64,000 bases of DNA, taken from Firmicutes bacterium UBA5509 (GTDB lineage: Bacteria > Bacillota > Proteinivoracia > UBA4975). The stretch is taken from the NCBI GenBank assembly GCA_002423965.1, contig DIOR01000023.1:90997-154996 (forward strand). Reading direction: 5' to 3'. This document shows, piece after piece, positions 35,109 to 60,373 of this stretch. The first letter of the stretch is position 1, and every line of letters begins with the position of its first letter. A model generated the notes under the pieces. The model searched no databases and had not been told where the DNA came from. It saw nothing but the letters and a program-made list of their open reading frames with translations. The translations under genes were made by a program, and so were the position numbers.

Positions 35109-36128
35109 ATGAGAATCTTTTGGGTAATAAAAGCGAAAACATTGGTCTTTTGTCTGGTGGCTTGTTTTGCCTTGCTGCTGGTAGTATATTCCCTTAATTT
35201 TGCAGTGGGGGAGGTCTTTTCCCGAAAGCCCAAGTATGTGGTTTTTTTAGGGCAGGAGTTGTATCCCAAGGACCTTGACTTGCATAAACAGGTGGAGCGA
35301 ATAACTGAAAGTATTAACCAACAACCGGAAGAAGCCCGCTATGACAATGTCAATAAAGCCGTAATTCCTGAGGTAAATGGCTTTGAAATAGATGTGGCCG
35401 CCTGTGTGGAGGCAATCAAAGGGGCAAAAAGAGGTGAAGTTGTCATACCGGTGTGGCGGGAAATCCCGCCGGAAATGAAACTGTCGGATTTTGCCTTATT
35501 CCCAGTCTATCAAGGCAATCCAGTAAAGAATCAAGTGGCCTTAGTAATAAATGTGTCATGGGGTAATGAATATTTGGAAGAGATGCTGAGTATTTTAGAG
35601 TCAAATGCCGTCCCCGCCAGTTTCTTTTTAGTTGGTCGTTGGGCGGAGGAAAATCCGGAGCTAGTGAAAAAAATCGCAGAGCTGGGTATGGATTTTGGCA
35701 ATCATGGTTATTCCGATCCCCATATGCAAGACCAAAGCCCGAAGGAAATAGAAGAGGAAATAATTAAGACAAATAAGGTAGTAGAAGAATTAACAGCTAA
35801 GAAAGTCCGCTGGTTTAGCCCCCCTTATGGGGAAAAGGCGGAGAAGATATACGAAGTGGCAGCTGATTTAGGGCTGCATACAATTCTCTGGTCTCTGGAT
35901 ACCGTAGATTGGCAACTGCCTGGTGAAGAAGTTATTATCCGCCGCATTGTTGACAATTTGCACAATGGGGCAATCATCCTTATGCATCCCACAGAACAAA
36001 CTCCTGGGGCCCTAAAGGCCATTATTGAGGGAGCTAGAGAAAAAAATCTAGAGTTTGTCACCGTCAGCCAGCTCCTGGATCCCAGTTATTGGCCTGCAAA
36101 ATACAGTGCACTGTGGGCGGGAAATTAA
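35109..36128 (+). CDS. Polysaccharide deacetylase (NodB domain) with N-terminal signal anchor; YlxY-like
   Basis: Transmembrane N-terminus and NodB motifs (VALVINVSWGNEY...FFLVGRW...HGYSDPHM). Position matches the ylxY orthologue. Confidence 0.85.
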   Translation: MRIFWVIKAKTLVFCLVACFALLLVVYSLNFAVGEVFSRKPKYVVFLGQELYPKDLDLHKQVERITESINQQPEEARYDNVNKAVIPEVNGFEIDVAACVEAIKGAKRGEVVIPVWREIPPEMKLSDFALFPVYQGNPVKNQVALVINVSWGNEYLEEMLSILESNAVPASFFLVGRWAEENPELVKKIAELGMDFGNHGYSDPHMQDQSPKEIEEEIIKTNKVVEELTAKKVRWFSPPYGEKAEKIYEVAADLGLHTILWSLDTVDWQLPGEEVIIRRIVDNLHNGAIILMHPTEQTPGALKAIIEGAREKNLEFVTVSQLLDPSYWPAKYSALWAGN

Positions 36129-36940: not shown

Positions 36941-36981
36941 CAGGGGCAGCGGGCAAACAGGACCGCTGCCCCTGTCTTTTG
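36941..36981 (+). terminator. Strong rho-independent terminator (12-bp stem CAGGGGCAGCGG/CCGCTGCCCCTG + TCTTTTG)
   Basis: Perfect 12-bp inverted repeat with a 10-nt loop and a U-tract. Confidence 0.85.
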
Positions 36982-37020
36982 CATATTGTATTAAGGAAAG
37001 GGCTAGAGGAGGAATGTTAC

Positions 37021-37899
37021 ATGGGGGTCGGAAGAATAGCAATAATTGGCGGTGACGCCAGAGAATTGACACTAGCCATGGAGCTAGTGGAGAAAGGATT
37101 TGACATCTGCCTGTGTGGCTTTGACTCAAGCGCCCTGGCTGGGGTGGAGCATTTCTCTTGCCCCAAGGAAGCAGTCAGAGGAGCTCAGGCTGTAATATTG
37201 CCTATGGCTGGGGTTAAAGGGGACTTAATCTACTGCCCCGGAAACCCAAACCCACCTGAGATACATGAGAATTTTTTTTCGGAACTGCCTGACAAAACTC
37301 CAGTGTTTATTGGCTGGGCCACTAAAGAATTAAAAAAAATGGCGGTAAATGTGCGGCTGGTGGAAATTGCCCAGGATGATGAATTGGCAGTGCTAAATTC
37401 CATCCCCACTGCCGAAGGAGCTGTTGCCATTGCTATTAACGATAGCCCCATTAGCATTCACGGCAACGATGCAATGGTGGTGGGCTTTGGGCGTTGCGGA
37501 ATTTCCTTAGGACGAATGCTAGGAGGCATAGGTGCCCATGTGACAGTGGCTGCCAGAAAGGCTTCTGACCGCGCCAGGGCAACAGAAATGGGGTTTCGTA
37601 CCTGCTCAATAAGCGACCTTCGGGAGCATGTAAAATCAATGGCATTTATTTTCAACACCATTCCGGCGCCGGTGCTGACCCAAGAGGTCTTGGCAAATGC
37701 AAGGAAATGCTCTTTACTTGTAGATATAGCCAGCGGTGGAGGCACGGATTTTGCTGCAGCTGAAAGCTTCGGCATAAAAGCACTTCTCGCTCCAGGGCTA
37801 CCAGGAAAAGTAGCACCGGTAACCGCCGGAAAGATCCTGGGAAAGGTAATTCCCAGGTTACTGTACGAATATGGCATCGGGGGAGGCGGAGAAAAGTGA
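37021..37899 (+). CDS. dpaA: Dipicolinate synthase subunit A (SpoVFA)
   Basis: Rossmann NAD(P)-binding fold (IAIIGGDARE...VVGFGRCG). GAGGAGG lies 8 nt before the ATG. Paired with dpaB downstream. Confidence 0.9.
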   Translation: MGVGRIAIIGGDARELTLAMELVEKGFDICLCGFDSSALAGVEHFSCPKEAVRGAQAVILPMAGVKGDLIYCPGNPNPPEIHENFFSELPDKTPVFIGWATKELKKMAVNVRLVEIAQDDELAVLNSIPTAEGAVAIAINDSPISIHGNDAMVVGFGRCGISLGRMLGGIGAHVTVAARKASDRARATEMGFRTCSISDLREHVKSMAFIFNTIPAPVLTQEVLANARKCSLLVDIASGGGTDFAAAESFGIKALLAPGLPGKVAPVTAGKILGKVIPRLLYEYGIGGGGEK

Positions 37900-38468
37900 A
37901 AAGCTTAAAAATAGGCTTTGCAATAACCGGGTCCCATTGCACTTTTGCGGCAATAACGGATCCGATGAAGGACTTGCGTGCTAAGGGAAACACCTTAATC
38001 CCGATATTGTCTGATGCAGCAGCCAGTACCAGCACTCGTTTTGGGGAGGCTGAGCATTGGACCAAAGCCTTTGCTGATATATCCGGGCATAGGGTAATTT
38101 CTTCAATCAAAGAGGCCGAGGAAATTGTCACCAATAAAGTGGATGTTGTTGTTGTGGCGCCTTGCACAGGAAATACTCTTGGGAAACTGGCAAACGCAAT
38201 AACAGATACTGCCGTGACTATGGTGGTCAAGGCTCAGTTGAGAAATGAAAAACCTGTGGTGTTGGCCATTTCCACAAATGATGGCTTGGCTGGCAATGCT
38301 GTGAACATTGGCAGGCTGCTGGATAAAAAGAATATTTATTTTGTCCCCTTCTGTCAAGATAATCCTCAGGTGAAGCCCCGTTCGCTGGTATGCAATATGT
38401 CCCTGTTGCCGGATACCATTGAAAGTGCAACCCAGGGAATACAAATCCAGCCGATTTTAATAAGGTAG
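37896..38468 (+). CDS. dpaB: Dipicolinate synthase subunit B (SpoVFB, flavoprotein)
   Basis: Flavoprotein fold (IGFAITGSHCTF...VVAPCTGNTLGKLA). The GTGA start overlaps the dpaA stop. Confidence 0.9.
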   Translation: MKSLKIGFAITGSHCTFAAITDPMKDLRAKGNTLIPILSDAAASTSTRFGEAEHWTKAFADISGHRVISSIKEAEEIVTNKVDVVVVAPCTGNTLGKLANAITDTAVTMVVKAQLRNEKPVVLAISTNDGLAGNAVNIGRLLDKKNIYFVPFCQDNPQVKPRSLVCNMSLLPDTIESATQGIQIQPILIR

Positions 38469-45186: not shown

Positions 45187-47409
45187 ATGCCTAGAACTCG
45201 ACGAAGACGCCGGCGAAAGGACCGGCAGGTTCACAATGAGGTCGGTGGCCTGATTATAGTTGCTCTTGCCGTTCTTGCAGGGGCAAGTCTATTTTCTCCT
45301 GATAATGTCGGTAAAATAGGCGGCTTACTTGCTCGCATGCAGTGGACTATTGCTGGCGAATACGCACTTTTTATTCCGTTTTCCTTGCTCTTATGGGGAA
45401 TAAGGATGATTTTCTTCCCCAATTCTCCCTTGTTTGCCCGCAGGGCTATTGGCAGCATGCTGCTAATTCTATGTATATTAACTGCAGTCCACATAGCTGC
45501 CGCTGATAAAGACTATTCCTCAGACCACCTATTGGCTATTTCCCGAGGGGATCCTATTATCGGCGGGGGAATTTTGGGTGCCTTAGGGGCCATTGGTTTG
45601 CTCAAGGCCTTTGGCCTGGTAGGGGGAGTTGTCATCCTGATTTCGGTGGTGTCAATTGGACTCTTCCTGCTCCTTAACATATCCTTGAAAGAGTTTGTCC
45701 AGGGTTTCTCCCGACTGGCCAAATCGGCAGCTAAGGCAATGGTTAAATCCATGTCCCGTCTAAACACTGCAGTGGGGAAATTGGTTAAATCCTCAGGTAC
45801 TCCTATAAAGGACAAGCCTGCTCCAGAGCCTGTCAATATTCACGACTATCAGGTTCCCGTCACAGACGATGGGGGGGATTCTACACCCCAGGAGCCGATT
45901 ATTGTTGAAGCTGAGCCATTGCTTCCTGAAACCATAGAGGAAGTTCTAGAGTTAGAACATGAAGAACCTGAACTTTACCAACTGCCGCCTTTGAACTTGT
46001 TGCAAAAAACCGTTCGCCTCAAAGACCCTCAGGGGAGGAGAGAGCTGGTTTCCCAGGCGGATATTTTAGAAGAGACTTTGGCTAGTTTTGGCATAGAGGC
46101 AAAGGTCATCAATGTTCACCGGGGGCCCACCATTACCAGGTTTGAAATTCAGCCAGCTTCAGGTGTCAAGGTCAGCAGAATTGTCAACCTTGCCGATGAC
46201 TTGGCCTTGAATCTGGCGGCTACAGGAGTAAGAATTGAGGCACCTATTCCAGGCAAGTCTGCCGTGGGCCTAGAATTGGCCAATAAATCCAAAGCTACTG
46301 TGTATTTGCGGGAAGTGCTGGAGACCAGCGAATTCCTTGATAACCCCTCGAAATTAGCAATTGCCCTGGGTAAGGATATTGCAGGGGCGACGGTTATTGC
46401 GGATTTGATGGACATTCCTCACCTCCTGATTGCTGGGGCCACAGGTTCTGGTAAGTCTGTCTGTCTCAATTCGATTATCATATCCCTATTGTACAAAGCC
46501 AAACCTTCGGAACTAAAGTTCTTGCTGATAGATCCGAAAGTTGTGGAATTAAACGTCTACAACGGACTGCCTCACTTGCTTTGCCCCGTTGTCACCGATC
46601 CACGCATGGCAGCCCAGGGGCTAAAAAACATTGTCAAGGAAATGGAGCAGCGCTATCATCTCTTTGCAGAGGTCGGAGCCAGGGATATACTGCGCTATAA
46701 TGAATCTGCCCAGGAAAGAGGGGAGAAACCCCTGCCCTATGTCATCGTCATAATTGACGAGCTGGCAGACCTAATGATGACTTCTCCTACAGAGGTAGAG
46801 GACTCTATCTTTAGGATTGCCCAGAAGTCTCGAGCCGCTGGAATTCACCTTATTGTAGCAACCCAGCGCCCTTCAGTGGATGTCATTACGGGGGTTATAA
46901 AAGCCAATCTTACAACGCGAATGGCCTTTGCCGTTTCCTCCAGTGCTGACTCCAAGACAATTCTCGACATGGGGGGAGCAGAAAAACTTTTGGGTCGTGG
47001 AGATATGCTCTTCTTCCCATTTGGGGCCTCCAAGCCACAGCGGCTCCAAAGTGCGTACATTTCCGATGAAGAAGTTGAAAATGTCGTCGCCCATGTCCTT
47101 GCTCAGTCCATGCCCGTGCTACGCACTGATTTCCTACAGCCCCATGAAGGTGAGACTGAGAAAGAGCTTTTGGAGATGGACGAATTGCTACCGGAAGCTG
47201 CAAGGATGATTGTTGAAAGTGGCCAAGCCTCAATTTCCATGTTGCAAAGGCGCCTGCGCGTTGGATATACCAGAGCCGGAAGGCTAATTGACAGTATGGA
47301 ACGGTTGTCCATTGTCGGGGGTCATGAGGGCAGTAAAGCCAGAAAAATCTTAGTTACCCTGGCACAGTTGGAAGAAATCCTAGAAAACCAAAATTTATAT
47401 ACCCCATAA
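45187..47409 (+). CDS. ftsK: DNA translocase FtsK/SpoIIIE
   Basis: N-terminal transmembrane domain, linker, motor domain (HLLIAGATGSGKSV...IIDELADLM), and a C-terminal gamma winged helix. Confidence 0.95.
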   Translation: MPRTRRRRRRKDRQVHNEVGGLIIVALAVLAGASLFSPDNVGKIGGLLARMQWTIAGEYALFIPFSLLLWGIRMIFFPNSPLFARRAIGSMLLILCILTAVHIAAADKDYSSDHLLAISRGDPIIGGGILGALGAIGLLKAFGLVGGVVILISVVSIGLFLLLNISLKEFVQGFSRLAKSAAKAMVKSMSRLNTAVGKLVKSSGTPIKDKPAPEPVNIHDYQVPVTDDGGDSTPQEPIIVEAEPLLPETIEEVLELEHEEPELYQLPPLNLLQKTVRLKDPQGRRELVSQADILEETLASFGIEAKVINVHRGPTITRFEIQPASGVKVSRIVNLADDLALNLAATGVRIEAPIPGKSAVGLELANKSKATVYLREVLETSEFLDNPSKLAIALGKDIAGATVIADLMDIPHLLIAGATGSGKSVCLNSIIISLLYKAKPSELKFLLIDPKVVELNVYNGLPHLLCPVVTDPRMAAQGLKNIVKEMEQRYHLFAEVGARDILRYNESAQERGEKPLPYVIVIIDELADLMMTSPTEVEDSIFRIAQKSRAAGIHLIVATQRPSVDVITGVIKANLTTRMAFAVSSSADSKTILDMGGAEKLLGRGDMLFFPFGASKPQRLQSAYISDEEVENVVAHVLAQSMPVLRTDFLQPHEGETEKELLEMDELLPEAARMIVESGQASISMLQRRLRVGYTRAGRLIDSMERLSIVGGHEGSKARKILVTLAQLEEILENQNLYTP

Positions 47410-48438
47410 GGACCCGGTCTCCGGGTTTTTTGGGTTTAGGTTCTCAATGTCCGACACTATTTTCTCTGGCAACCGGGCAATTTCTGAATAGTCCATACCC
47501 GACCTGTATACCTCTTCCAACTGACTATGGAGCTTAGCAGCCTTAGCCATGTCATCAATAGCCCTTTCAATATAATTACTGACTTGGCTTTCTAATTCAG
47601 AAGGTCCAGTATATTCGGGGCCAAATTCACCATCAATTCCCTTGACTAGGTGGGGCTGATGACTTGAAAAAATCGCTAATTCTCCTGGAATATAAATATG
47701 CTCTAAGTGCTGGGGCTGCAGACCACAATAGAGGTAGAGGGCAGGAATATGGTGCAGGGAGAGGTGGCGGGATATTTCCACCAAAACAAGAGAATTAAAA
47801 GCTCTGTTACCGCCAACTAAGGCAAAGCTGTGCTTGACTTTCAGGCTGGGTAAAAAGCTGACAAAGCCATCGGCGGTAATCCCCGTAGCAAAGGCATGGC
47901 GTATAATCCCCTTAGAGGGTGTGGAAATATATTCTTTGATATGAGCCGCAATTTCCCGGGCATTGAGCTTAACCCGGGTGCGCTCCAGTTGCTGAACCTG
48001 GTCTGCCAGTCCCCCTGCCACAGCCAACCAGCCATAAGCGGCTTTATATCTATTAGCTTTTTCTGCAACGAGATCTTGTATTTTTTTGCGCTGTGCAATC
48101 AATACCTTTTCGTCCCAATAACGGCCTAAATCTATTACCTGTTGCACTGCTCCAGGTAAATGGGGGTCTATTGTATGGGGAGATGTGCCATCAATAATTG
48201 ATACTTGCTGAGAAGGAATGAAAAGACCGTCCAGGGAATCCGAAGCTGCTGTGCAATGGTATTTTTCCAGGGAGCAGGGGTAATTCCTGGAAACCTTTTG
48301 AATAATAGTTGATTTTCCGGTGCCGGGACCGCCTTTAAGGATGAAAACTCTGTTAAGACTGTCCATGGCTAGGTATTGATAGTGGGAAAAAAATCCCCTA
48401 GAGGAATTTGCACCGGCAAAAAGATGGATAGTGGTCAC
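47395..48438 (-). CDS. Uncharacterised P-loop NTPase (Walker A GGPGTGKST), about 347 aa
   Basis: On the - strand GAAAGGAAG lies 8 nt upstream of a GTG (MTTIHLFAGAN...). Walker A ILKGGPGTGKST and a Walker B-like VSIIDG. The ORF track extends to 48510 with a TTG that has no RBS. Confidence 0.7.
   Translation of the reverse strand: MTTIHLFAGANSSRGFFSHYQYLAMDSLNRVFILKGGPGTGKSTIIQKVSRNYPCSLEKYHCTAASDSLDGLFIPSQQVSIIDGTSPHTIDPHLPGAVQQVIDLGRYWDEKVLIAQRKKIQDLVAEKANRYKAAYGWLAVAGGLADQVQQLERTRVKLNAREIAAHIKEYISTPSKGIIRHAFATGITADGFVSFLPSLKVKHSFALVGGNRAFNSLVLVEISRHLSLHHIPALYLYCGLQPQHLEHIYIPGELAIFSSHQPHLVKGIDGEFGPEYTGPSELESQVSNYIERAIDDMAKAAKLHSQLEEVYRSGMDYSEIARLPEKIVSDIENLNPKNPETGSLWGI
47412..47431. terminator. 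Short bidirectional hairpin (ACCCGG-tct-CCGGGT + TTTTTT) at the ftsK 3' end; it lies inside the 3' coding end of the convergent gene
   Basis: Inverted repeat and a T6 run seen directly. Overlaps the last 15 codons of the minus-strand ORF. Confidence 0.45.
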
Positions 48439-48543
48439 GGCAATAACTTCCTTTCTGTTTTCTGTATTATCATACTGCCGGCACAAAGTTTCAGTGCAAT
48501 TAGAGGGCAAATTTGATATACTCTTTTTATGGAGTGAAGGTCA

Positions 48544-49305
48544 ATGGAATGGTACATGGAATATGAAGTTATCAAAAACAGGCCTGGCACCTTAGGCGAT
48601 ATCGCTTCTTTCCTAGGGCTCATGGGTGTAAATATTCTCATGATTAATGGCGTTGCCGAGGGACGGCGCGGTCTATTACTGGGATGTAAAGAAAAATCTA
48701 GAATCGAGTTTATAAAAGATGCTCTCTCTAAAGTACGTAGCATCAAACTTCGAGCTTTTCGACAACCCAACTTTATAGACAGAATTAGCCTGAAACACGG
48801 CAAGATAATATGTCAGGAGGCAAACTCCCCTGCAACATATAGCTTTGTCCGAGAAGATTTAGGCATGTTGGTGGACTTTTTAGGGGAGTTGTTCTTACAG
48901 GATAAGCCCATTATCGGCCTCCGTGGCATGCCCAGAGTGGGCAAGACAGAAGCTACAATTGCAGCCAGTGTCTATGCCAATAAAAAATGGGTAATCATCT
49001 CATCCACCCTTATGCGCCAGTCAATGCGCAAAGTCTTGTCTGAGGAAGAGCAGACAGTGGATTGTGTCTACTTAATTGACGGCATCGTTTCCGGTGTCCG
49101 AGGCAGCACTGAACACAAGGAATTGGTTGAGGAAATATTGAAGCATCCTGTGCCAAAGGTTATCGAACATCCTGATATCTTCCTGCGGGAAAACGACTTG
49201 CCAGAGGACTTTCTTGACTATATTATTGAACTCAGGCGTTCTAAGGATGAGGTTATAGACTATAACCTCGTTTCTCAGTCCTTTTCATCCTTTGATATAA
49301 GCTGA
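48544..49305 (+). CDS. ACT-domain protein with a C-terminal Walker-A-like motif (DUF3388/YmfK-like)
   Basis: N-terminal ACT fold (YEVIKNRPGTLGDIASFLGLMGVNI). GMPRVGKTE (GxxxxGKT) and a hydrophobic-D stretch (VDCVYLIDG). Lies upstream of rodZ, as ymfK does in Bacillus. Confidence 0.75.
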   Translation: MEWYMEYEVIKNRPGTLGDIASFLGLMGVNILMINGVAEGRRGLLLGCKEKSRIEFIKDALSKVRSIKLRAFRQPNFIDRISLKHGKIICQEANSPATYSFVREDLGMLVDFLGELFLQDKPIIGLRGMPRVGKTEATIAASVYANKKWVIISSTLMRQSMRKVLSEEEQTVDCVYLIDGIVSGVRGSTEHKELVEEILKHPVPKVIEHPDIFLRENDLPEDFLDYIIELRRSKDEVIDYNLVSQSFSSFDIS

Positions 49306-49315
49306 GGTGAATGTA

Positions 49316-50089
49316 ATGGATCAAATCGTCAGTCAGTTAATTGAAGCTCGCAACAAAGCCGGTCTTAGTCTGGAGGATCTGCACAAATTGACAATGATTC
49401 CAGTCAGGCAATTAGAATACCTGGAATCATATCAGTTTGACAAAATAGGTCCCTCTGTCTATGTCAAAGGTTTTATGCGCAGGTACGCTGAAGAAGTTGG
49501 CATTGACCCCGACAGCCTATGGCAGATTGAAACAAGTCAGCTTCCATTAGCTTCTCCTGTCAAGGCCAAAGGCAGTCGTCCGCCTCTAAAGAATTATCTT
49601 ATCCCTATTGTGCGCATTCTTGCTGTTTTAGCCATTCTCTTTTTAGTAGGGGTCCTGATTTACAAAGCTTATATTTCTTTTAACCAGCCAGCTCCCCCTG
49701 CACCACCAGCACCGCCCGGACATGAGGACCAGGAACCCGAACCGGAGCCGCAGCCGGAGCCTGAACCCGAACCGGAACCCCAGGTGACAGCAGAACCGGT
49801 GCAGGTAGATAGTAACGATGCAATCTATTTGATTCACAATGCCGAGAGCCTTGAAGTGACTTTAGACTTTAGCGGTAGTTGTTGGACCCGCATGACTGTT
49901 GACGGGAAGAAGGCAGGGGAGAGTACTTTTACCTCCGGCCAACAACACCAGTTGGCTGCAACGGAGTACGTGAAAATCAGGTTCGGTGCCCCCCTTTATG
50001 TCAGCGTTACTGTCAATGGCGTCCCAATTGAAACCCCGGAACTACGAAAGGGCTTTAATTTGGAAATTAGGTTGGCTCCTGCCGATTAG
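49316..50089 (+). CDS. rodZ: Cytoskeleton protein RodZ (XRE-type HTH, TM segment, Pro/Glu-rich linker, DUF4115)
   Basis: HTH (LIEARNKAGLSLEDLHKLTMIPVRQLEYLE), transmembrane segment (LIPIVRILAVLAILFLVGVLIY), PPAPPAPP and PEPEPQ repeats, C-terminal beta domain. Confidence 0.85.
   Translation: MDQIVSQLIEARNKAGLSLEDLHKLTMIPVRQLEYLESYQFDKIGPSVYVKGFMRRYAEEVGIDPDSLWQIETSQLPLASPVKAKGSRPPLKNYLIPIVRILAVLAILFLVGVLIYKAYISFNQPAPPAPPAPPGHEDQEPEPEPQPEPEPEPEPQVTAEPVQVDSNDAIYLIHNAESLEVTLDFSGSCWTRMTVDGKKAGESTFTSGQQHQLAATEYVKIRFGAPLYVSVTVNGVPIETPELRKGFNLEIRLAPAD
49694..49793 (+). repeat. Low-complexity Pro-Ala / Pro-Glu repeat-coding tract inside rodZ (CCN-GAR tandem repeats)
   Basis: Encodes PPAPPAPP...EPEPEPQPEPEPEPEPQ. 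The tandem GAACCS units are visible in the DNA. Confidence 0.6.
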
Positions 50090-52032: not shown

Positions 52033-52063
52033 ATCTTATGTAAACTAGGAGGTGTGAATGCTC

Positions 52064-52549
52064 ATGCGTTGGAAACTGTTCTTGCCACTGGCGGTGATTC
52101 TTACATTGCTAGGAATGCTGGGCAGCAATTATTGGTCTGCATCAGCATCTCACCGGCAAATAGCCGCATTGCAACAAGAAAGCGTTGCTAATATCTCAGA
52201 GAATGAGGATAGTATTGTCCTTAGCCTTGAAGCTAATGGTGACCTGGCAGATATCTTAGCTAATCTGGACCAAGAGAAAGTCAACAGGGTACTGGCGGGC
52301 AGGGAGCTGAAATTACAACGGACTGGGCTGGTGCCCATCGACTTGGATTTTTCTCGACAGGTTGATTTACTTGTTGCCCAAGCGGTGGCAACTCGTGAAT
52401 ACTACTCAGCCAGCCTGATGCTTGAAAAAATGGCCCAGGAGCATGGGTACAACTCTGCTTTAGTTATCTGGGGGGATAGGGTGGTGGCTGAGGTTGGTGA
52501 CAGCCTTGAATGTCATATCGCCCAGCAGGTTATGGAGGTGAGACCATGA
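52064..52549 (+). CDS. Hypothetical signal-anchored/secreted protein (about 161 aa)
   Basis: N-terminal hydrophobic segment (WKLFLPLAVILTLLGMLG). AGGAGGTG lies 9 nt before the ATG. The stop overlaps the next gene's start (ATGA). Confidence 0.55.
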   Translation: MRWKLFLPLAVILTLLGMLGSNYWSASASHRQIAALQQESVANISENEDSIVLSLEANGDLADILANLDQEKVNRVLAGRELKLQRTGLVPIDLDFSRQVDLLVAQAVATREYYSASLMLEKMAQEHGYNSALVIWGDRVVAEVGDSLECHIAQQVMEVRP

Positions 52550-54015
52550 AAGAAATAGCAGCGGCTGTGGTAGTGGCCGCTTTGGCAGTCCTTGCCCTAA
52601 ATGGAGTTAATATCATGCCCTATATTTTAGTCTCGATAATTGGCTTAATGCTGGTTACTCGCTTTGAACTCTTTGGCAAAATCACTAACGGCGCCAAGTA
52701 TTCATCCGAGAAAGGGACCCTTTCGGATATCAGCTTTGATGTGGTGGGGGGGCAGGATGATGCAAAGGAAGACCTGATGGAAGCTTTGTCTCTCTTAAAG
52801 TCCTCCCGAAACACCAAGTTGGGAATTAAGCCTTTGGGGGGCATCCTCCTTCAAGGCCCACCGGGAACGGGCAAGACGCTGATGGCAAGGGCCGCCGCCA
52901 ACTATACTGATTCGATCTTTTTGGCTGCATCCGGCAGTGAATTCGTAGAAATGTATGCTGGAGTTGGAGCCAAACGTGTGCGGGATCTATTTAGCAAAGC
53001 CCGGCGCTTGGCGCGCAGGCATCGCAAGGAATCTGCAATGGTCTTTATCGATGAAATGGATGTTGTAGGTGCAAAAAGAGGAAAAGTTGAAAGTCATATG
53101 GAGTATGACCAGACCCTTAATCAGCTCCTGGTAGAACTTGATGGCATTGAGGATACCAGCGATGTCAAATTATTTGTCCTGGGGGCAACCAATAGAGCAG
53201 ATCTCTTAGATGAGGCTCTCCTCCGGCCAGGGCGTTTCGACAGAATTGTCGACATCGGTCTTCCTGATTTAGACGGTAGATTGGCGATATTGAAAATTCA
53301 CTGCCAGGGAAAGCCACTGGCTCCGGATGTGGATTTAACGGACATTGCTCATCAGACCTATGGTTTTTCCGGCGCACATCTGGCTAATTTGGCCAATGAG
53401 GCTGCGATTCAAGCAATGCGCCGTGGTGATGACAATATTATGCACAATGACTTCCTGGAATCCATCGACAAAGTTCAGCTTGGTGGCATTAGGGAAGGCT
53501 TGCTTTCATCTGCTGAAAAACAGCGGGTGGCGATTCATGAATCTGGACATGCCCTCATTAGTGAACTGTTTTTCCCCGGCTCCGTTTCAACGGTAACAGT
53601 TGTACCACGGTCCAAGACCCTAGGCTTTATCCGCCAAAAGGAAGATGTGGCCCCTGTTCTTCAGACCGAATCCTATCTGAAGAAACAGTTATGTGTGCTT
53701 TTGGCCGGAGGCGCTGCTGAGGAACTGGTTTTAGGCGAAGGCAGCACCGGTGCCGCCAATGATTACCAACGGGCTACCGAGATCAGTAAAAATATTATTG
53801 TCCACGGTCTTTCAAGATTGGGTATAATTAATATGGACCACATCGATAATCGGGAATTCAACATGGTTAGCAGTGAAATCATTAAAGAGAGCCGCGATAA
53901 GGTGGCAGGCGTTCTCGCCAGTCACCGTGACGCCCTGGATGGGGCCGCTGCAATATTGGCAGAGCAAGAAAGGATTTCTGGAGAAGATTTTCGCAATCTG
54001 ATGCATCAAGGATAA
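52546..54015 (+). CDS. Short FtsH-family AAA+ zinc metalloprotease paralog (N-terminal TM hairpin, no periplasmic domain)
   Basis: Walker A GPPGTGKT, Walker B FIDEMD, second region of homology (GATNRADLLDEALLRPGRFDR), HEXXH (HESGH) and a downstream GAANDYQRAT third zinc ligand. 489 aa, against about 600-650 for canonical FtsH. Confidence 0.85.
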   Translation: MKEIAAAVVVAALAVLALNGVNIMPYILVSIIGLMLVTRFELFGKITNGAKYSSEKGTLSDISFDVVGGQDDAKEDLMEALSLLKSSRNTKLGIKPLGGILLQGPPGTGKTLMARAAANYTDSIFLAASGSEFVEMYAGVGAKRVRDLFSKARRLARRHRKESAMVFIDEMDVVGAKRGKVESHMEYDQTLNQLLVELDGIEDTSDVKLFVLGATNRADLLDEALLRPGRFDRIVDIGLPDLDGRLAILKIHCQGKPLAPDVDLTDIAHQTYGFSGAHLANLANEAAIQAMRRGDDNIMHNDFLESIDKVQLGGIREGLLSSAEKQRVAIHESGHALISELFFPGSVSTVTVVPRSKTLGFIRQKEDVAPVLQTESYLKKQLCVLLAGGAAEELVLGEGSTGAANDYQRATEISKNIIVHGLSRLGIINMDHIDNREFNMVSSEIIKESRDKVAGVLASHRDALDGAAAILAEQERISGEDFRNLMHQG

Positions 54016-60069: not shown

Positions 60070-60112
60070 TATCATATGTAGAACTTTATTTAGACAAGAG
60101 GGGGTTTACTTT

Positions 60113-60373
60113 TTGGACGTATTGAAAGTATCAGCAAAATCCAATCCTAATTCCGTCGCCGGAGCATTGGCAGGTGTCCTGCGGGAGCGGGGTGGTGCTG
60201 AAATGCAGGCCATCGGTGCCGGGGCCCTGAACCAGGCTGTCAAAGCCGTTGCAATCGCAAGAGGATTCGTCGCTCCCAGTGGTGTTGACCTAATCTGCAT
60301 CCCCGCCTTTACAGACATAATTATCGATGGTGAAGAACGTACTGCCATCAAGCTCATTGTTGAACCGCGTTAG
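60113..60373 (+). CDS. spoVS: Stage V sporulation protein S
   Basis: 86 aa, about 90% identical to B. subtilis SpoVS as I recall it (LKVSAKSNPNSVAGALAGVLRERG...). TTG start 8 nt after AGAGGGGG. Confidence 0.95.
   Translation: MDVLKVSAKSNPNSVAGALAGVLRERGGAEMQAIGAGALNQAVKAVAIARGFVAPSGVDLICIPAFTDIIIDGEERTAIKLIVEPR

Follow-up and report, generated by a model that had tools for sequence, protein, structure and literature searches.

The locus considered here raises the question of whether two adjacent P-loop proteins, encoded back to back between an ftsK-type gene and rodZ, work together or merely lie side by side. It belongs to a 64,000-nucleotide stretch of Firmicutes bacterium UBA5509 (contig DIOR01000023.1), which is referred to as the window, and all positions are those of the window unless a locus is named. 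An initial annotation had described a divergent gene pair encoding 347 amino acids (aa) on the minus strand and 253 aa on the plus strand with a gap of 105 bp, and both the table of open reading frames (ORFs) and the raw sequence agreed with this. The locus is laid out as follows.

45187-47409, plus strand: ftsK/spoIIIE-type translocase gene, assigned from the ORF, from synteny in tblastn and from the Pfam FtsK domains of the identical gene in locus L084.
47395-48438, minus strand: gene of a predicted dwNTPase (dual-wield P-loop NTPase) of class 3, a distant PRK06851 relative, 347 aa from a GTG start.
48439-48543: shared divergent intergenic region, 105 bp.
48544-49305, plus strand: ymfK (DUF3388), 253 aa, assigned from the ORF table and Pfam.
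49307-50089, plus strand: rodZ, with HTH_25 and RodZ_C (Pfam), beginning 1 nt past the ymfK stop.

We favor, at a probability of about 60%, the reading that these are two independent genes joined by a lineage-specific insertion and not a dedicated two-protein system. In this view, the ancestor of a single uncultured Bacillota lineage would have acquired a dwNTPase gene by head-on insertion beside ymfK. This reading is based on the presence of the pair in every locus of that lineage, its absence elsewhere, two loci with an empty site, the isolated orientation of the minus-strand gene and the unequal divergence of the proteins. The pair does not amount to a newly found two-protein system, since both families were already catalogued and the adjacency occurs in one uncultured lineage only.

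The divergent pair was present in 12 of the 12 loci of this lineage. All seven loci of the dwNTPase subfamily among the GTDB species genomes (L001-L007) carried the full synteny of the window, and all of them were uncultured "Bacillota bacterium" metagenome-assembled genomes (MAGs). The pair was also found in four of four additional lineage contigs (L086, L087, L088 and L091). Outside the lineage, DUF3388, RodZ and FtsK were found within 10 kb of none of the 73 canonical PRK06851 loci, and a dwNTPase neighbor was seen at 0 of 5 DUF3388 loci (Proteinivorax, Effusibacillus, Paenibacillus, Melghirimyces and an Alicyclobacillaceae MAG). The initial annotation had called the position between ftsK and rodZ a conserved arrangement, which on these counts is not true in any broad sense. 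It had also named a failure of the two genes to co-occur in other genomes as an outcome that would speak against it, and with the pair confined to one lineage this outcome was nearly reached.

Two loci appear to preserve the empty site. In the Alicyclobacillaceae MAG (L090, 3553-6765 of that locus), ftsK is directly followed by ymfK. In Proteinivorax tanatarense (L081) the order is ftsK-GntR-Bmp-ABC-ymfK with no dwNTPase gene, and the Bmp-ABC operon is as in L088 and L091, in which ftsK and the dwNTPase gene are separated by a Bmp-ABC transporter operon. When the three proteins were compared over one set of lineage genomes, identity was 40-70% for the dwNTPase, 64-87% for YmfK and 71-90% for FtsK. 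Finally, the statement that the last 60 kb contain no other substantial gene on the minus strand proved correct. The dwNTPase gene is the sole real one downstream of about 2 kb, and the other minus-strand ORFs past that point either lie within genes of the plus strand or are antisense shadows. The guanine-cytosine (GC) skew was positive across the whole window, so that the gene is the only head-on one in an otherwise co-directional block; its GC content equals that of the surroundings.

What is truly conserved at this locus is the order ymfK-rodZ-(rimO)-pgsA, which is already visible in B. subtilis as ymfK-rodZ-pgsA (PMC5073135, Fig. 1A legend). DUF3388 lay directly upstream of a RodZ-like gene in 17 of 17 loci (12 of this lineage and five of other Bacillota), where in two of the 17 (L086 and L087) the downstream gene of 254-256 aa has no Pfam match on record. 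As rodZ starts immediately after the ymfK stop, it is likely the operon partner of ymfK, and ymfK would be the first gene of a widely conserved cluster. The arrangement therefore reduces to this known linkage plus a lineage-specific neighbor, with both proteins belonging to known families.

Some of the loci outside the lineage showed further features around ymfK. In Melghirimyces algeriensis (L089, 6001-10261), three HTH_25 (RodZ-like) genes lie in tandem after DUF3388, with RodZ_C on the third only, and in L090 a Spore_YhcN_YlaJ gene lies immediately 3' of rodZ. Unannotated genes are located directly upstream of ymfK on the same strand in Effusibacillus dendaii (L082, 5840-6973, 377 aa) and Paenibacillus (L083, 6031-6882, 283 aa). 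The Effusibacillus gene was examined as a hidden dwNTPase and rejected (BLASTP E = 1); neither gene had NCBIfam matches, and both are deemed unrelated to the dwNTPase.

The minus-strand protein itself could be placed in a described family. The NCBIfam models of PRK06851 matched it with E-values of 8.2e-52 (NF005320, residues 4-256) and 6.8e-45 (NF005317), in line with the PRK06851-like identity guessed at in the initial annotation. The scores lie under the equivalog cut-offs (176 versus 556 bits and 154 versus 689 bits, respectively), so the protein is a homologue and not an equivalog of the curated models. It aligned over its full length with PRK06851-named proteins (P0039, P0042, P0055 and P0107), and Pfam gave Walker-A-length matches only. 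In the database search its closest relatives formed a discrete subfamily of 334-347 aa, 38-100% identical, without Pfam annotation and nearly all metagenomic. Canonical PRK06851 proteins, 27-33% identical to the window protein, ranked below this subfamily. The seven lineage assemblies gave no second match among the best 80 of 317 relatives, a weak negative for a canonical paralogue.

Sakuma, Koike and Ota (2024) described PRK06851 proteins as "dual-wield P-loop NTPases", with two atypical P-loop domains per chain that are related by two-fold pseudo-symmetry and bridged by two long helices, each half having a conserved Cys/Asp/Asp/His cluster (PMC10949312). These proteins are almost confined to Firmicutes and have no similar solved structure (PMC10949312). 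In class 3, an intact P-loop 1 is combined with a degenerate P-loop 2 (Fig. S5, PMC10949312). The two sites of the window protein are the following.

48307-48333, minus strand: N-terminal Walker A, GGPGTGKST (G36-T44), intact by sequence and alignment.
47791-47814, minus strand: degenerate second P-loop, GGNRAFNS (G209-S216), without Lys-Ser/Thr by alignment and hhalign.

The canonical Walker A reported earlier, ILKGGPGTGKST, occupies residues 33-44. Invariant in 23 aligned sequences were K35, G36, P38, G39, K42, S43, C62, D70, D83 and H88; the last four were matched by eye to Cys66, Asp74, Asp87 and His92 of the B. thuringiensis protein (PMC10949312), which is itself outside the alignment. 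At the position of the second site, canonical members carry G-x-x-G-[ST]-G-K-[ST], and in the subfamily G-G-N-R-x-[YF]-N is conserved instead. The C-terminal half retains the Cys (C238) and His (H263), while the second Asp is replaced by Ser. An hhalign comparison of the two halves gave 99.8% probability (E 1.5e-29) and mapped GGPGTGKST onto GGNRAFNSL. The AlphaFold model, with a predicted local distance difference test (pLDDT) score of 90.5 and a predicted template modeling (pTM) score of 0.89, had two long helices (117-152 and 281-312) and a strand/helix pattern that occurs twice. The earlier statement that this protein has no other recognizable domain thus has to be given up in view of the full-length PRK06851 homology and the second, degenerate P-loop domain.

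With the Walker A intact at 36-44 and degenerate at 209-216, and both domains modeled with high confidence, alignment and model identify the protein as a class-3 dwNTPase, a predicted pseudo-dimer arising from internal duplication of an atypical P-loop domain. Class 1, in which the Walker A is intact in both halves, does not apply because the second site lacks GK[ST]. Only the N-terminal site keeps the residues required for nucleotide binding and hydrolysis, namely GGPGTGKST together with Cys62, Asp70, Asp83 and His88. The C-terminal site may have become a conserved non-catalytic pocket, GGNRxYN, with the Cys and His kept and the Lys, the Ser and one Asp lost. Some canonical-length relatives (P0060, P0070, P0074 and P0107) also have a degenerate second P-loop, so this loss is not unique to the subfamily of the window protein.

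Could the minus-strand gene then be cargo of a past insertion unrelated to sporulation, such as a defence-type, STAND-like or accessory ATPase gene, that came to lie beside ymfK by accident? The lone head-on position in a 60-kb co-directional block and the empty-site loci L090 and L081 would fit this, and so would weak Pfam and PADLOC matches to nSTAND3, AAA_19, PDC-M16A and mad8. However, these matches span the Walker A region only (about residues 22-66), with E around 1e-3 and below the cut-offs, and the full-length homology is to PRK06851. In addition, neither repeats nor genes of mobile elements flank it in the ORF lists, the GC content does not differ from the surroundings, and the gene is stably inherited, being conserved across 38-70% identity. 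We consider such an origin very unlikely. A defence-system reading was rejected, as PADLOC returned Walker-A-length matches only (E ~1e-3) for the minus-strand protein and none for YmfK.

The only functional lead for the dwNTPase family is its only studied member, CD3298 (CD630_32980) of C. difficile, which belongs to the dwNTPase/PRK06851 proteins (PMC10949312). Mutants that lack it do not package calcium dipicolinate (Ca-DPA) into their spores, and its mother-cell expression depends on SigE (PMC5509370; PMC10449524). The window contains dpaA and dpaB (36979-38468), which exceeded the NCBIfam cut-offs, a ylxY-type spore deacetylase gene (35109-36128), which scored below its cut-off, and an ORF of 86 aa that is SpoVS-like by eye (60113-60373, plus strand; a minus-strand ORF of 83 aa at 60106-60357 is its antisense shadow). 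On these genes, the window organism very probably forms endospores and makes dipicolinate; tepA, ylzJ and ftsK/spoIIIE are other window genes cited for a link to sporulation. The most likely function of the dwNTPase would accordingly lie in sporulation, in the loading of the forespore with Ca-DPA, as suggested by the distant homology to CD3298 and the dpaAB genes in the window. It would serve as a sporulation-associated ATPase helping Ca-dipicolinate into the forespore. The initial annotation had regarded both proteins as uncharacterized. This still applies to their mechanisms, but the PRK06851 fold has been described and one member has a spore Ca-DPA phenotype.

The plus-strand protein had been read as an ACT domain followed by GMPRVGKTE and a Walker-B-like stretch, similar to DUF3388/YmfK, and this assignment was correct. 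It matched Pfam DUF3388 (PF11868) with an E-value of 9.7e-63 and 211.4 bits (cut-off 25). A total of 1859 YmfK homologues were found, about 50% identical even in Bacilli, several of which are named "YmfK family protein" by NCBI. Both GMPRVGKTE (Walker A) and VYLIDG (Walker-B-like) are present, with the Walker A at G128-T135 (48925-48948) and VYLID ending at D179. In 38 diverse YmfK sequences 46 columns were invariant, including RGMPRVGKTE, SSTLxRQ, DGIV after a hydrophobic strand, and EHPD.

The AlphaFold model of YmfK (pLDDT 90.0) consisted of two parts, an N-terminal ACT domain (about residues 1-75) and a small AAA+-like P-loop core (about 95-235). The N-terminal part showed a beta-alpha-beta-beta-alpha-beta fold like that of solved ACT domains. 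The Pfam ACT model (PF01842) scored below its gathering threshold (22.5 versus 27 bits), and ACT was listed for many YmfK homologues in a precomputed table. A sequence search against solved chains found no relative of YmfK (best E-value 0.77). Judging from the motifs and the model, YmfK is probably a small-molecule-gated NTPase, with the ACT domain as the ligand sensor and a minimal AAA+-like P-loop core, that would act with RodZ and the envelope/phospholipid machinery. A literature search gave nothing on DUF3388, and "ymfK" mostly denoted an unrelated E. coli prophage gene; B. subtilis ymfK was listed among the genes co-evolving with polC in one comparative study.

The extent of the region shared by the two genes depends on the start of the minus-strand gene. 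Its longest reading (47395-48510, TTG start, 371 aa) is the one given by the public record (P0001). A ribosome-binding site, AAGGAAG, is located 8 nt upstream of the GTG at 48438, and homologues of 345-347 aa begin at the same position in the alignment. For these reasons the 347-aa reading is better supported than the 371-aa reading, and the intergenic region then runs from 48439 to 48543. It contains the following elements.

48494-48499 and 48514-48522, plus strand: promoter-like element for ymfK, GTGCAA, 17 nt, TGaTATACT (alignment and consensus).
48494-48466, minus strand: weaker promoter-like element for the dwNTPase gene, CTGAAA, 17 nt, GATAAT (consensus).
48492-48501: block cagtGCAATt, 8-10 bp, invariant in the lineage, at the -35 position of both promoter-like elements.

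An alignment of eight lineage regions had in common an extended -10 element (TGnTATAAT-like) for ymfK and an invariant GTGCAAT 17 nt upstream. Promoter-like and terminator sites in the consensus scan were not enriched over shuffles, and Rfam gave no match (E up to 1) at 47000-49600, on which ground a hidden RNA element in or near the intergenic region was rejected. Because of these two negatives, we can only infer a back-to-back promoter layout. The initial annotation had suggested looking for operators in this region. The invariant block could be a shared operator or a pair of overlapping -35 boxes.

Several points weigh against our reading of the locus and of the dwNTPase. The adjacency of the dwNTPase gene and ymfK outlasted one or more rearrangements on the far side, where most loci have ftsK and L088 and L091 have the Bmp-ABC operon, and the intergenic core of 8-10 bp is invariant. 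Both could reflect selected linkage or co-regulation. As regards sporulation, no convincing promoter for a sporulation sigma factor, including SigE-like ones, was seen by eye upstream of the dwNTPase gene in the eight-sequence alignment. The transfer of the CD3298 phenotype is weak, since the window protein shares so little identity with canonical PRK06851. Canonical dwNTPase genes also have no conserved neighbors that would confirm a role in DPA loading. In a survey in which ORFs within 5 kb of the 73 canonical genes were clustered, the best shared real neighbor was an ABC-transporter ATPase-like cluster (17/73) with no fixed position or strand, and the best position-specific one was an unannotated 163-aa ORF immediately upstream (12/73). 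Neither is a conserved operon partner; guilt by association was therefore rejected for the canonical family, and its neighbors give no functional clue.

The first two of these points bear on the possibility that the dwNTPase and YmfK are a lineage-specific functional pair, co-regulated from overlapping back-to-back promoters, for example as ligand-sensing NTPases feeding RodZ and envelope synthesis during sporulation. Such a pair would explain its own presence in all 12 lineage loci, the adjacency kept in L088 and L091, and the invariant GTGCAAT core that both divergent promoter-like elements have at the -35 position. It would also be consistent with the degenerate second site, where the conserved GGNRxYN suggests a retained binding function. 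However, the two families are never linked outside the lineage (0/73 and 0/5), and YmfK is conserved in Bacilli at about 50% identity with no dwNTPase neighbor, so its function cannot depend on the dwNTPase. The two proteins evolve at unequal rates. All 12 loci come from a single clade in which synteny is conserved in other respects too, so the adjacency is accounted for by inheritance alone, and retention through one flank change has roughly even odds by chance. We therefore regard a functional pair as unlikely, and prefer two independent genes joined by insertion. More elaborate still, and quite improbable, is the proposal that a half-inactivated dwNTPase was recruited beside ymfK under shared bidirectional control, the two forming a working pair that couples Ca-DPA loading to the RodZ/PgsA machinery, with the GGNRxYN pocket as the site for a partner or ligand.

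At their other ends, the ftsK and dwNTPase ORFs are convergent and overlap by 15 bp at their 3' ends. One further element was found here.

47403-47434, plus strand: hairpin and U-run just 3' of the ftsK stop, inside the last dwNTPase codons; -19.2 kcal/mol, z -2.7.

The hairpin, which is absent from the sites listed in the consensus terminator scan, is a likely terminator. The C-terminal tail of the dwNTPase that overlaps it (residues 338-347) is poorly conserved and has pLDDT below 50.

The gene order of the window corresponds to a B. subtilis-type region. It runs from the ylxY-type spore deacetylase gene through dpaA, dpaB, asd, dapG, dapA, rnj, tepA, ylzJ and uppP to ftsK. The dwNTPase gene, ymfK, rodZ, rimO, pgsA, a 163-aa ORF, an FtsH-like gene, cinA and a phosphoesterase gene follow, and then recA, rny, ymdB and the SpoVS-like ORF. 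The ORF of about 163 aa (52058-52549, plus strand) has no Pfam or NCBIfam match and overlaps the start of the FtsH-like gene, which encodes a 501-aa AAA/M41 protease (52510-54015, plus strand; TIGR01241 415 bits against a cut-off of 600). The two genes are located 3' of pgsA in every lineage locus and in Proteinivorax (L081, L086-L088 and L091). On the minus strand, the only other gene candidate in the window is a 226-aa ORF at 1357-2037, which has no Pfam match and partially overlaps a plus-strand ORF.

The two families occur widely among Bacillota, and for neither is a mechanism known. The dwNTPase fold is absent from the PDB, and spore Ca-DPA loading in C. difficile is its single genetic phenotype. 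A dwNTPase subfamily that naturally has a single site, with a conserved motif in place of the other, marks the site that is catalytically dispensable and may guide mutagenesis. The more general lead is YmfK, a highly conserved ACT and P-loop protein, apparently translationally coupled to rodZ across Bacillota, and a plausible candidate regulator of the cell-elongation or phospholipid machinery. The dwNTPase-ymfK pairing itself has no general significance on present evidence.

Compared with known systems, the minus-strand protein resembles the dwNTPases in its full-length homology, duplicated domain, two long helices, and N-site Walker A with the preceding Lys and the Cys/Asp/Asp/His residues. 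Like published class-3 members, it has a degenerate P-loop 2, and its subfamily is likewise restricted to Bacillota and without a similar solved structure. It differs from canonical members in being somewhat shorter (334-347 versus about 355-380 aa), in the conserved motif of its own at the degenerate site, and in a gene position that is fixed, divergent from ymfK, as against canonical genes, which lack conserved neighbors. The likeness to CD3298 consists of dwNTPase membership, as stated for CD3298 in the published work, and of hosts that both appear to be endospore formers with dpaAB; the two proteins were set together by family membership. YmfK has the DRPGxLG-type loop of ACT modules such as those of SerB, IlvN and TyrR. 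With AAA+ cores such as NSF-D2, Cdc6/Orc and Vps4 it shares the Walker A and Walker B but no visible lid domain, and it has no sequence-level relationship to the ACT and AAA+ systems. The closest counterpart is B. subtilis YmfK, which it resembles in the strong Pfam match, the approximately 50% identity to the "YmfK family", the ACT and P-loop architecture, and the position immediately upstream of rodZ (ymfM) and pgsA. The differences from B. subtilis are not substantial: the lineage has rimO between rodZ and pgsA, and the dwNTPase gene lies upstream of ymfK in place of ymfJ (DUF3243).

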